IMG/VR virus record: IMGVR_UViG_3300045988_158256
DNA from: a virus
Taxonomy: Duplodnaviria; Heunggongvirae; Uroviricota; Caudoviricetes
Length of the DNA: 64,000 nucleotides
Direction: 5' to 3' (one strand)
A program made the translations under genes and the position numbers. Positions 21,021-24,710 of this stretch are shown here, in pieces; position 1 is the stretch's first letter; each line of letters opens with the position of its first letter. The notes beneath the pieces are model-generated. The model was not told the origin of the DNA. It did no database searches and worked only from the letters and a program-made list of their open reading frames with translations.

Positions 21021-21037
21021 AAAATTATTAGTGCAAT
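21021..21037 (-). promoter_or_regulatory. C1 operator-like site
   Basis: Reverse complement ATTGCACTAATAATTTT, 15/17. Confidence 0.5.
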
Positions 21038-21094
21038 TTTGATTGTGAAATGTATCATTCTGCCCTTAAGTAGGTTCTTCACGAGGAAACAAAA

Positions 21095-21340
21095 TTGGCA
21101 GAACGTGTTGATGATGCAGAGCTGAGCATGAATCAGTTAGAAGCTCTCAAAGACATGGCCATCGATAACATCAGAAAGCAGGCACAGGTCGTGAGCCAGG
21201 TATTTACAGGGAAGTGTCGTTACTGCAATGAATCGATTGAATCAGGCATTTATTGTGACGCTGAATGTGCGCAATGGCACAGGGAAGAGCAGGCCGCAAA
21301 ACAGCGTAAATATGGCATGCGACCGGCAGGATTTGACTGA
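21095..21340 (+). CDS. small zinc-ribbon protein
   Basis: 81 aa, TTG start with GAGGAA SD; CRYCNESIESGIYCDAEC four-Cys motif. Confidence 0.4.
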   Translation: MAERVDDAELSMNQLEALKDMAIDNIRKQAQVVSQVFTGKCRYCNESIESGIYCDAECAQWHREEQAAKQRKYGMRPAGFD

Positions 21341-21342
21341 TT

Positions 21343-21921
21343 ATGTTGCGCTTTACTGAGGAAGAGTTTCAGGCTTTTAGTGAGCGTCGAAATAAGGGGC
21401 GGTCCAGGCCAAAAACCAAAAAGGATCCATTCTTATCGCTTGCGCCGGTAAAAGAAGTTTCTCCACATGCGAAGGCACTTGCAGCACTTGCAAAGAACCC
21501 AGACCTGCGCGACGGAAATTGCGAGCACTTCGAGCAGGTTTTCATTTTTGATTACTTCGAACGCAAGCACCCTGACATCTATGAGCTGTTGCATGCAACG
21601 CCTAACGGAGGGAAACGTTCAAAAGCAACCGCCGGGAAAATGAAGGCTGAAGGGCAGAAAAAAGGTTATCCGGACATGAGTCTCGATAAAGCATGCGGTA
21701 TTTATCACGGCATGCGAATTGAGCTTAAAGAACCAAATGGTAAAGCCCCGACGAAAGAGCAGATCGCCTGGATGCGCAGGCTTAGAGAGGAAGGCTACTA
21801 CGTTGTTCTTGCGTATGGTGCAGAACAAGCGATTACCGCCATCCTGGAATACATAAGTCTTAAAAAGGGTGAGGCTATTGAGCATGTATTGAACGGCGAT
21901 AAGTGGTTGCATGCTGCTTAA
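21343..21921 (+). CDS. VRR-NUC domain nuclease
   Basis: 192 aa; HATPNGG ... KGYPDMSL ... GMRIELKEPNGKAPTKEQIAW ... GYYVVLAY matches VRR-NUC (PD-(D/E)xK) signature. Confidence 0.6.
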   Translation: MLRFTEEEFQAFSERRNKGRSRPKTKKDPFLSLAPVKEVSPHAKALAALAKNPDLRDGNCEHFEQVFIFDYFERKHPDIYELLHATPNGGKRSKATAGKMKAEGQKKGYPDMSLDKACGIYHGMRIELKEPNGKAPTKEQIAWMRRLREEGYYVVLAYGAEQAITAILEYISLKKGEAIEHVLNGDKWLHAA

Positions 21922-22084
21922 AATAATAAATTAATTAGTGCATGTATGCTCTTTGTGGTAGTGCACTTTAACATCGGGAGAATAATCGTGTCATCCAAGG
22001 TTAATTATGAGTCGCTGGCATCGGTCATGCCGCGTAATGAACAGGAAACAGATGCTGTAGTGGACCCTGTAATCGCTGAAATGA

Positions 22085-22747
22085 ATGCTCGCCTGGAGGC
22101 TGAATTTGCAGCTGAGAATGAACATACCACCCAGGGCGACTAGGACTGTTTTTTGTGTCGGTAGCGGTCCGTCACTCACTCGTGAGGACTGTGCTGCTAT
22201 AGAAAAAACTGGCTGTTCAATCATCGCGGTTAACAATTCCTGGCAGATGTTCGATGACATTTATGCCTTATACGCCGGTGATTTGTCATGGTGGAAGCAA
22301 TACGGATCCACCATACCGGGAGGGAGATTCCGCAAAGTGACAGCCAACATGGCGGCGGCGAAATCATTTTCGTTGGAGTACAGGCGATATTGTGGACCGG
22401 CGGAAGGGGTAAATAGCGGCGCGCAGGCTATCAGTCTGGCTGCTGAATCAGGGGCTGAAGTAGTGGTATTAGTCGGCTATGACTGTTCTCTGCAAAACGG
22501 CCTTCATTGGCATGGCGCGCACCCTCAAGCACTACGGAATCCAACGCAGGTGTCTATTTCAAAATGGCAACAGCAGTTCCTGGATACCCGCAAAAAACAC
22601 GCAGATTTACATATTTTGAATGCAAGTAGGAGCAGTGCAATTCAATGTTTCCCAAGAATAAATTTAGAGGCAGTGATCGCGTTATTATCGTCGGCAGTGG
22701 CCCAAGCGCCGCAAACTTTGTTGCGCCGCGCGGAGTGCCGATTATAG
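22085..22747 (+). CDS. hypothetical protein, paralogue 1 (Gly-rich loop VGSGPS ... IIAVNN)
   Basis: ORF track; start uncertain (22085 or 22118); 3-prime end overlaps paralogue 2 by 103 nt in another frame. Confidence 0.4.
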   Translation: MLAWRLNLQLRMNIPPRATRTVFCVGSGPSLTREDCAAIEKTGCSIIAVNNSWQMFDDIYALYAGDLSWWKQYGSTIPGGRFRKVTANMAAAKSFSLEYRRYCGPAEGVNSGAQAISLAAESGAEVVVLVGYDCSLQNGLHWHGAHPQALRNPTQVSISKWQQQFLDTRKKHADLHILNASRSSAIQCFPRINLEAVIALLSSAVAQAPQTLLRRAECRL

Positions 22748-23271
22748 CGGTCAATGGGGCCATCGACTGGCTTAACCGCGCTTCTTATTTTTTCACCCTT
22801 GATCCATCCCCAGACAATATGCGGCGCGTTGGTCGTGGCCGCCGTCGCCGTGGTGTTTGTTATTGCATGGCACTACCCGATGTTAAAGAACGTGAAGTCA
22901 GAGATGGCGTTCTGTGCTTCCGTCGTGTGGCTGAACGCGGCATGGAGCCAAAAAATACGAATTCTCCCGAGTGGTGGGCGTGGCGCTGGTCCGCACATTT
23001 CGGCCTTTGCGAAGATGAGAATGAAATTGCCAGCGGCAATAGTGCATATGGTGCTCTGAACCTGGCTTTCCATATCGGATTCAAACATGTAGCTCTGGTG
23101 GGCGTTGACGCTACGCAAGAACTACGCGTTCACTCCGGCGGCACGCCAAAAAATCTAAGTCACCTGCCTTTGTTATTCCAGTCTGCGCGTGAACAGATTG
23201 ACGTTGTTTCATGCGGGAAAATGGGAGGTATTCCGCAGATGACTCTTAAAGAATGGCTGAAGAATACATGA
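22645..23271 (+). CDS. hypothetical protein, paralogue 2 (IIVGSGPS ... IIAVNG)
   Basis: 208 aa; N-terminal motif paralogous to preceding ORF. Confidence 0.45.
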
Positions 23272-23945
23272 TGGCACCCACAATTTATCACCGTATCGAC
23301 GGTACCAAATACAGGAATGTCTGGGTTGTTGGTGATCTGCATGGTTGCTACACCAGACTGATGTCCGAACTCCATCGTGTGGATTTTGACCCGGCGCAGG
23401 ATTTACTGATATCGGTCGGCGACCTTATCGATCGCGGTACTGAAAATGTCGAATGTCTGGAACTATTGCAGATGCCCTGGTTCAGGGCAGTGATGGGGAA
23501 CCATGAGCGGCTGATGATTGATGCGTTAAGTCCAGATGGCAACGTGAATAACTGGCTAATGAATGGCGGACAATGGTTCTTCATGCTGGACACTGATCAG
23601 GAAATATTAGCCTGGGCGCTGGTGGAGCTGGTAAAGCGTCTGCCCTATATCATTGAGTTGAACACGGGGCAAGAAACTATCGTTATAGCCCATGCCGACT
23701 ATCCGGATAATGAATACCAATTCGGTAAGGAGGTGCCGCTTTTCAACGTTGTCTGGGCGCGCGAGCGTATCAGTGATTCGATGGATGATATTGGTGGCGA
23801 AATTTCGGGCGCAGATCGTTTTATCTTTGGTCACACTCCGGTGAAAAGCCCGAAGACATTCTGGAATCAGCAGTATATCGACACTGGTGCCGTATTTTGC
23901 GGAAACCTGACATTGATGAAAGTGAAAGGTGATGGTGCAGCATGA
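23253..23945 (+). CDS. ppp: Ser/Thr protein phosphatase (lambda-PPase family)
   Basis: GDLHG, GDLIDRG, GNHE metallophosphatase motifs. Confidence 0.8.
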
Positions 23946-24643
23946 AGATTGCTTTAGTTTTTCGCTCTGGTGGTGACTATAACGCTTCCGATGTGCAGTG
24001 GCTGGTTAATCAACTGCCAAAAGGCTATGAAATTATTTGCCTGACAGACCTGAAGCGTTTACATGTACCTGGCGTCAAAGTTGTCCCATTGATCAACCAG
24101 TGGCAAAAGTGCCGTGGCTGGTGGGCGAAAATCGAGTTGTTCCGACCGGATATAACCGATGATCTGTTCTATCTGGATTTGGACACGGTTATTGCCGGTG
24201 ATATACGCCCAATCCTAGAGCATCCACCAACCAGCTTCACCATGCTTAGGGATTTTTACCATCCACAATATCGTGGCAGCGGTGCCCTGTGGATACCAAA
24301 TAGTGTTAAAGCGCATATCTGGAGTTCATTCTGGCAAGATCCGGAAGGTTGGATTTCTCGTTGTGTCACTACTGAGTGCTGGGGTGACCAGGGGTTCTTA
24401 CGAAAGGTTATGGGCGATGATACACCAGCATTTCAGGATCTGTATCCAGGATGGTTTGTAAGTTACAAGGCCGATGTTGTGGAACCTGGTTCAAAATATG
24501 CGAGCGCGCGTTACTCCAGGGGGAATGGGGCATTACCAAAAGACTGCCGAATAATCTTTTTCCACGGCAAACCGCGACCTCGCGAAGTGTCAGAGGATTG
24601 GCTTCCCCTTATCAGCTCATTTTTTGAGCGAGAATCAGAATAA
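23942..24643 (+). CDS. hypothetical protein with DxD-type motif
   Basis: 233 aa; [10 protein letters not shown]; overlaps ppp stop (ATGA). Confidence 0.4.
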
Positions 24644-24644
24644 T

Positions 24645-24661
24645 ATTGCTCTAATAATTCC
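24645..24661 (+). promoter_or_regulatory. C1 operator-like site
   Basis: ATTGCTCTAATAATTCC, 14/17. Confidence 0.5.
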
Positions 24662-24670
24662 ATATTTTTA

Positions 24671-24700
24671 AAACGTGATGTACACTCATCACGTTTTTTA
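24671..24700 (+). terminator. rho-independent terminator
   Basis: AAACGTGATG-tacact-CATCACGTTT hairpin followed by T-run. Confidence 0.65.
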
Positions 24701-24710
24701 TTAGAGCAAT
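24694..24710 (-). promoter_or_regulatory. C1 operator-like site (inverted)
   Basis: Reverse complement ATTGCTCTAATAAAAAA, 14/17. Confidence 0.45.

Follow-up and report, generated by a model that had tools for sequence, protein, structure and literature searches.

Genes pmgL to pmgQ of phage P1 as an accessory mosaic with a putative glycosylation cassette

The pmgL-pmgQ locus, its control and its dispensability

An initial annotation of a 64,000-nucleotide stretch of tailed-phage DNA (IMG/VR record IMGVR_UViG_3300045988_158256; here called the window, at its full length) singled out positions 21021-24710 as a C1-bounded operon of six co-directional genes that might serve host manipulation, DNA modification or anti-defence. 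These positions hold the pmgL-pmgM-pmgN-pmgO-pmgP-ppp-pmgQ block of phage P1, the same locus and already annotated there: positions 20900-24800 match 78407-82307 of P1 (AF234172) in a single ungapped alignment of 3901 bases with 99.4% nucleotide identity, and the P1-like phages Ro157c2YLVW and JL22 are slightly nearer than P1 itself, at 99.7%. Gene order, overlaps, operators and promoters are the same as in P1, with few substitutions and no insertions or deletions, and the feature positions in Table 1 were carried over from the P1 annotation (window position = position in our locus L001 + 18399). The annotation of phage P7 names the equivalents upf81.0, upf81.2, hdmA-D and ppp. What we consider below is chiefly the nature of three of these genes, pmgO, pmgP and pmgQ (the O-P-Q trio), which are found together in many other phages and may form a glycosylation cassette within a mosaic of accessory genes.

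Table 1. Features of the pmgL-pmgQ locus (window positions) and, in the last nine lines, genes for a small capsid-adjacent protein in other loci (positions within each locus)
Feature	Position	Strand	Product or remark	Source
LP26/LPpmgL	20978-21006 (LPpmgL 20988-21006)	-/+	divergent Lpa-dependent late promoters	P1 annotation; no insertions or deletions relative to P1 here
O26/Op82	21021-21037	-	C1 operator; 2 mismatches to consensus; overlaps predicted sigma-70 promoters P1pmgL and P2pmgL	P1 annotation and operator scan
pmgL	21095-21340	+	81 amino acids (aa); tentatively a DksA/TraR-like C4 zinc finger	P1 annotation
pmgM	21343-21921	+	predicted VRR-NUC (PD-(D/E)xK) nuclease	P1 annotation
PpmgN	21889-21915	+	predicted promoter	P1 and P7 annotations
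Oppp/Op83	21928-21944	-	C1 operator; 4 mismatches to consensus	P1 and P7 annotations
pmgN	21988-22143	+	51 aa, acidic	P1 annotation
pmgO	22085-22747	+	putative glycosyltransferase, Maf/Cst/MptE-like (DUF115)	P1 annotation
pmgP	22645-23271	+	pmgO paralogue; 103-nt overlap with pmgO	P1 annotation
ppp	23253-23945	+	predicted lambda NinI-type Mn-dependent Ser/Thr protein phosphatase	P1 annotation
pmgQ	23942-24643	+	putative GT8-like (GT-A, DxD) glycosyltransferase, retaining type	P1 annotation
OpmgRa/Op86a	24645-24661	+	C1 operator	P1 annotation and operator scan
hairpin terminator	24670-24697			fold computed here
OpmgRb/Op86b	24694-24710	-	C1 operator; predicted PpmgR overlaps 24645-24710	P1 annotation and operator scan
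pmgR	24725-24943			P1 annotation
SSASP-motif gene	L059 6298-6552
SSASP-motif gene	L060 3511-3792
SSASP-motif gene	L062 1513-1794
SSASP-motif gene	L068 1699-1998
SSASP-motif gene	L070 1131-1397
SSASP-motif gene	L071 1475-1774
SSASP-motif gene	L078 1841-2086
SSASP-motif gene	L084 4307-4621
SSASP-motif gene	L090 6154-6555

Across most of the approximately 50 P1-like loci that we examined, some of them cut short at contig ends, identity is 95-100% for the genes of the block; PmgN is lower, at 86-100%. The initial annotation had recognised ppp alone as P1 backbone, which proves to be wrong, as every gene of the block is conserved in this way. The six genes that it listed are indeed present, and the small pmgN had escaped it as a seventh. 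Its picture of the boundaries was accurate: a scan with the C1 consensus ATTGCTCTAATAAATTT, allowing up to three mismatches, returned 15 matches in the window against 0.19 expected, among them those at 21021, 24645 and 24694, so that the operator-like site that it saw upstream is the annotated Op82, and the inverted pair that it placed around a terminator is that of Op86a and Op86b. Between Op86a and Op86b lies a hairpin with a folding energy of -13.4 kcal/mol (z = -5.5), after which comes a T run. A generic terminator scan did not pick up this hairpin, probably because the T run lies partly inside the stem. The annotated -10 element of PpmgR occupies 24669-24674, just before the hairpin loop and with an Op86 operator on either side, and from this position it would follow that pmgR transcripts start within the hairpin, such that transcripts arriving from upstream would be stopped by it and those of pmgR would not. 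Such an arrangement would shield the essential pmgR from upstream read-through yet keep it under C1 control.

The picture of a single operon, on the other hand, does not hold, as an internal operator, Op83, and the promoter PpmgN had been overlooked. Op83 is missing from the list of our consensus scan because its mismatches exceed the limit of three. Lying between pmgM and pmgN, Op83 and PpmgN divide the block into two C1-controlled units, pmgLM and pmgN-Q, the first of which additionally has the late promoter LPpmgL.

The block itself and its dispensability are already known, the former from the reference P1 annotation. Gonzales et al. knocked out 29 pmg and upf genes one at a time, and 24 of the mutants were without a plaquing defect, with anti-restriction on EcoK, EcoA and EcoB unchanged (PMC9024508), and pmgL, M, N, O, P, ppp and Q were all non-essential in this deletion survey (PMC9024508, as tabulated by Piya et al., PMC10695390). 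By CRISPR interference (CRISPRi) all of the seven, pmgL included, are likewise non-essential except pmgN (PMC10695390). The pmgN result (efficiency of plating 1.4e-2, scored 'essential') is at odds with its deletion, a discrepancy pointed out by the authors themselves (Piya et al., PMC10695390), and since CRISPRi of every gene downstream of pmgN was harmless, simple polarity does not explain it. The virion proteome (Table 1 of PMC9024508) lists no product of the block, and the cryo-EM model (PMC12810830) includes none either, which supports the initial view of the genes as accessory rather than structural. Some natural P1-like plasmid-prophages appear to have broken copies as well, which is consistent with dispensability: tblastn coverage and shifted coordinates point to insertions or truncations in pmgP, in pmgQ or in the pmgN-pmgO gap of L013, L036, L052, L053, L055 and L056; L016 and L056 lack pmgL and have a truncated pmgM; and in phage phi456 an insertion sequence (IS) gene, IS1 InsB, is annotated within this region. 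Our literature search found no functional study of pmgL-Q and no account of capsid glycosylation in Gram-negative phages.

Protein families encoded in the block

The last gene of the block, for which the initial annotation could offer only the description of a 'DxD protein', appears to encode a glycosyltransferase. Both profile comparison and the predicted structure give PmgQ a GT-A fold that is nearest to structures of family GT8, and AgtA, an enzyme of GT8, is matched by the profile of the PmgQ family at E = 2.5e-6. D79-L-D81 and H208-G-x-P-x-P213 are invariant in 32 homologues, and the DxD motif and the C-terminal HxxGxxKP motif align with those of AgtA and of Escherichia coli WaaO. Identity to the retaining enzymes of GT8 (AgtA/Skp1 α-GalT, PDB 6mw5; GlyE, 5gvv; glycogenin; LgtC; E. 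coli WaaO) is 13-16%, and PmgQ is shorter than these at 233 aa, so that we would describe it as a distant relative of GT8 and not as a member of the family as Pfam defines it.

The two overlapping genes upstream of ppp, which the initial annotation had linked through a shared GSGPS loop, are true paralogues, their profiles aligning in hhalign with a probability of 98.2% (E = 3.4e-14, 160 columns). Their fold, again from profiles and predicted structures, is nearest to that of Maf and of the Cst sialyltransferases. Profiles and predicted structures were required for these assignments: single-sequence searches of the PDB with PmgO, PmgQ and PmgL returned noise only. When compared with the Maf flagellin nonulosonic-acid glycosyltransferases (PDB 5mu5) and with Cst-I and Cst-II of family GT42, PmgO and PmgP would be stand-alone catalytic cores of approximately 200 aa without the flanking substrate-binding domains of Maf, and the P1 block differs further in having neither a flagellin nor a nonulosonic-acid biosynthesis context. 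We also considered homology to E. coli WaaZ, the transferase for the third residue of 3-deoxy-D-manno-octulosonate (KdoIII; PF27901), and found the link too weak for such a claim, since hhalign gave 12% for PmgO and 20% for PmgP and covered the nucleotide-binding motif only; a faint precomputed match to PF27901 is carried by a fused PmgO+PmgP homologue, P0051.

PmgP is the most conserved member of the trio, with 328 homologue clusters, of which the best 120, from gammaproteobacterial prophages, are at about 50% identity or more; the PmgO-like family comprises 7,658 representative clusters at E <= 1e-3. Homologues cover only about 80-90% of PmgO as annotated, and PHROG 4603 aligns from residue 25, which suggests that the annotated start (ATG 22085) is too far upstream. 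The true start is probably the in-frame ATG at 22118, the last possible one ahead of the conserved GSGPS loop.

For Ppp the initial assignment to the lambda-type Ser/Thr phosphatases stands. The protein matches Pfam Metallophos with 59.3 bits (cut-off 21.5), PHROG 246 (NinI-like) at E = 5e-113 and NCBIfam PRK11439 at E = 3.3e-81, the last with a score of 272 that is below the equivalog cut-off of 326. The metallophosphatase motifs GDxHG, GDxxDRG and GNHE are all present, MGNHE being readable in the translation, and 64% identity to the lambda phosphatase is stated in the P1 record. Its relatives are thus lambda NinI and E. coli PrpA/PrpB, and we take it to be a metallophosphatase of the NinI/PrpA type. 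In P1 the gene sits between two putative glycosyltransferase genes, a setting different from that in phage D6, where it lies in a nin-like region.

PmgM and PmgL, proposed at the outset to be a VRR-NUC nuclease and a Zn-ribbon protein, also keep those assignments, the second less firmly. Residues 77-180 of PmgM align with PDB 4qbl ('VRR-NUC', E = 3.5e-17), a D...ExK catalytic motif is present (D111, E127, K129), and the protein matches PHROG 5702 ('Holliday junction resolvase') at E = 4.8e-27, with a score against Pfam VRR_NUC of 21.3 bits that falls just under the cut-off of 23.8. PmgM is accordingly a VRR-NUC nuclease by family, putatively of the Holliday-junction-resolvase type after the name of PHROG 5702, and it differs from the phage and bacterial VRR-NUC nucleases such as 4qbl in an extra N-terminal region of approximately 75-95 aa. 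PmgL matches PHROG 54, 'DksA-like zinc-finger protein', at E = 1.6e-12, a name that its phage homologues also carry in RefSeq; it found no match to Pfam zf-dskA_traR and, in the single-sequence search, none in the PDB. Its four cysteines are arranged as CxxC-x9-CxxxC, a shorter spacing than that of TraR and DksA, and its classification as a DksA/TraR-like zinc finger is tentative. PmgN matches PHROG 2350, a family of unknown function, and no other recognisable family in Pfam or PHROG. The gene begins with a GTG after GGGAGA, within a longer open reading frame (ORF) that begins at 21946, and it is the most variable of the block, forming two allele groups (100% and 86-90%) among P1-like phages that are otherwise 98-100% identical.

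The O-P-Q trio in other phages

Homologues of pmgO, pmgP and pmgQ are adjacent to one another in phages unrelated to P1. They lie between lysis and packaging or head genes in a Citrobacter rodentium prophage (L003) and in a phage with an SU10/P22-type portal (L004), after lysis genes in an Alloalcanivorax prophage (L089), and directly after the major capsid gene in L088, a prophage of Pseudomonas, and L090, a Gilvimarinus phage. The usual places of the trio are the one right behind the major capsid gene and the one between lysis genes and terminase. In a wider search with the PmgQ profile, which yielded 26 distant IMG/VR loci, a PmgO-like gene is close upstream of the PmgQ-like gene, or fused to it, in approximately 15, and several of those without one end at a contig edge. 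The major head protein is the nearest large upstream gene in seven of ten sampled loci, as it is in L088 and L090.

Fusions join the members of the trio in several combinations: PmgO with PmgP in P0051 (376 aa), PmgQ with a PmgO-like domain in L075 (421 aa), PmgO with itself in tandem proteins, and a PmgQ-like GT8 domain with MptE-like domains in viral proteins of 685-700 aa that are named MptE-like. A PmgO-like domain is also fused to a TylF-type O-methyltransferase, and the genes next to the trio are often those of sugar-tailoring enzymes, including genes for an FkbM methyltransferase (Pfam E = 2.8e-15), for a carbohydrate-type sulfotransferase (Sulfotransfer_2) together with S-adenosylmethionine (SAM)-dependent methyltransferases, and, judged from its sequence, for a protein that we read as LmbE-like. 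L004 has an additional putative transferase of the DxD type with a weak match to Pfam Nucleotid_trans, and a 193-aa protein of L088, also putatively of this type, had no family match in profile searches. Taken together, O-P-Q emerges as what seems to be a widespread phage cassette, sometimes fused and often adjacent to the capsid gene, and its recognition as such is new here.

Ig-like domains, a typical element of surface decoration in phages, also occur with PmgO-like sequences: in P0231 (556 aa) a PmgO-like domain is fused to Ig-like domains of the Big_1 and Big_13 families, and in Serratia plymuthica (L087, 8001-10442) two Big_1 proteins come after a PmgO-like gene.

A second observation concerns small proteins of one family (80-130 aa; PHROG 2616/7993, with weak matches to DUF7210) whose genes lie between an HK97-type major capsid gene and a PmgO-like gene (Table 1). 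The motif G-x-KSSASPxxxAS is conserved among them and their C-terminus is rich in Lys; they are candidates for a glycosylation substrate or a decoration protein. The P1 window contains no homologue of them.

The other genes of the P1 block seem not to travel with the trio. Beside it we found no homologue of Ppp, PmgL, PmgM or PmgN in the loci examined outside P1-like phages, and the notion of the whole block as one functional operon was rejected on this ground. The absence of ppp extends to the divergent P1-like element L057, in which PmgM, PmgO, PmgP, PmgQ and PmgR are present; conversely, ppp occurs alone in phage D6. This distribution shows ppp to be independent of the trio, a module of its own that was inserted between pmgP and pmgQ. 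The block as a whole is best explained as a mosaic of independent modules that are C1-repressed, accessory and non-essential, and that are also served by LPpmgL. Directly downstream of the pmgR homologue of L057 lies a 1,456-aa autotransporter-like ORF (4404-8774, minus strand), which looks like a cargo gene, placed where pmgS stands in P1.

A possible glycosylation cassette and its acceptor

From these families and contexts we infer, with somewhat better than even confidence, that pmgL-Q is an accessory mosaic at whose core the O-P-Q trio is a late-expressed, three-enzyme glycosylation cassette using nucleotide sugars of the host, with ppp a separate gene whose product would act independently. 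PmgQ would be a metal-dependent hexosyltransferase of the DxD type, presumably with a UDP-sugar as donor, and each of PmgO and PmgP would attach one sugar by means of a fold that otherwise handles ulosonic acids activated by cytidine monophosphate (CMP). As the cassette in P1, L003 and L004 is without sugar-activation genes, housekeeping donors of the host must serve. To our knowledge CMP-Kdo is the only universal CMP-ulosonic donor in enterobacteria, and it would be the most plausible one there for PmgO and PmgP. In E. coli, transfer of Kdo from CMP-Kdo by Maf enzymes has been shown (bioRxiv 10.1101/2020.06.03.131540). Working in one pathway, the three enzymes might then assemble a short glycan on their acceptor while the phage grows lytically.

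It is tempting to look for that acceptor in the virion, as the cassette directly follows the major capsid gene in other phages and is accompanied there by sugar-tailoring enzymes; a virion protein is thus our leading guess. The glycosylation system of mycobacteriophages (Che8 gp110, Corndog gp38), which is not known to have a Maf-like component, adds a precedent. In the account of it given in PMC12363180, phage-encoded glycosyltransferases glycosylate capsid and tail-tube proteins (Freeman 2023). They are expressed with the late or structural genes, as would be the case here; that system is experimentally shown and belongs to actinobacterial hosts, whereas the P1 cassette is known from its genes. 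More tentatively, and as a proposal to which we would give about one chance in four, P1 and thousands of other Gram-negative phages may O-glycosylate a phage protein by a cassette of two Maf-like enzymes and one GT8 enzyme, which would assemble a short glycan from housekeeping donors, possibly including Kdo, on a virion component in P1 or on the SSASP-motif protein in phages of the HK97 type. If this were true, one of the best-studied phages would have a virion glycosylation system of a kind so far undescribed outside actinobacteriophages. Glycosylation by the trio, whether of virions or of lipopolysaccharide (LPS), would matter for how immunogenic and how stable phages are and for the biology of their receptors. 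The misleading labels 'putative morphogenetic' and 'head morphogenesis' can be replaced by specific enzyme assignments that are testable in P1, which is genetically tractable and for which deletion mutants already exist.

Several observations weigh against a glycosylation cassette that acts on the virion. PmgQ has no Pfam match at threshold, Glyco_transf_8 (PF01501) included, and a homologue scores E = 0.31 against this family. PmgO and PmgP score 23.6 and 20.9 bits against the Pfam family MptE-like (PF01973), under its cut-off of 34.6, which the fused homologue P0051 exceeds with 44.6 bits; many homologues carry precomputed PF01973. The cassette is not beside the capsid gene in P1, L003, L004 and L089, and where it is, that position could be merely a favoured insertion site for morons. 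A search of the window for a Ser/Thr-rich protein that might serve as acceptor gave nothing but spurious antisense ORFs. Finally, P1 virion proteomics and the 3.2-Å cryo-EM structure report neither glycans nor a decoration protein, although neither study looked for them (PMC9024508, PMC12810830).

The main rival to a virion-protein acceptor is the core of the host LPS, which is the receptor of P1. In lytic growth the trio might remodel it, for example with Kdo and a hexose, and so keep progeny or superinfecting phage from adsorbing to infected cells and debris, a suggestion that gains from the presence of core glucosyltransferases in GT8 and from the faint resemblance to WaaZ, itself weak and limited to one motif. 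We nevertheless think it rather unlikely, as the cassette is C1-repressed and hence off in lysogens, newly made LPS would hardly get to the surface in time when expression is late, the cassette of most other phages is part of the head gene module and accompanied by methyl- and sulfotransferases, and its deletions are without a plating phenotype (PMC9024508).

A second alternative, close to that of the initial annotation, is an anti-defence or DNA-modification module in which the nuclease, glycosyltransferases and phosphatase would shield the DNA of P1 or inactivate host immunity. The DNA glycosyltransferases that are known, GT-A enzymes of the JGT-like and GT-B enzymes of the T4-like kind, need DNA with 5-hydroxymethyl-pyrimidines, and P1 DNA is ordinarily restrictable. 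The families in the block are different ones, and no enzyme of a 5-hydroxymethyl-pyrimidine pathway was found in 21000-24700 with Pfam, NCBIfam or PHROG; DNA glycosylation was rejected for these reasons. As single deletions also leave plating on EcoK, EcoA and EcoB hosts unchanged (PMC9024508) and the modules are not co-inherited outside P1, we judge the anti-defence function, too, to be unlikely. None of eight proteins had a PADLOC match, which is weak evidence here as PADLOC models defence systems and not counter-defences.

If, instead, PmgO and PmgP were small-molecule pyrophosphokinases of the MptE or thiamine-pyrophosphokinase type, the trio would not be a glycan assembly line. We consider such an activity improbable, although the fold alone would allow it. 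Least probable is that these are true head-assembly genes, as their names in P1 (pmg, a label for which the late promoter upstream is the only experimental support) and in P7 (hdm) imply and as the position of related cassettes inside the head modules of other phages might suggest, given that all seven can be deleted without loss of plaques (PMC9024508, tabulated in PMC10695390), that their products are enzymes and a zinc finger in place of structural folds and were not detected in the virion by proteomics or cryo-EM, and that some natural P1-like plasmids have IS insertions in pmgP and inferred insertions or truncations in pmgQ.

Chromosomal homologues are uninformative as to the acceptor of the proposed glycosylation. 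The PmgO-like gene of Serratia lies among phage-type lysis genes and is possibly part of a prophage remnant, and in Pantoea floridensis (L085/L086, 8001-8633), with no phage genes near, a PmgQ-like GT8 gene (49% identity to PmgQ) stands as an orphan between lpdA and acnB.

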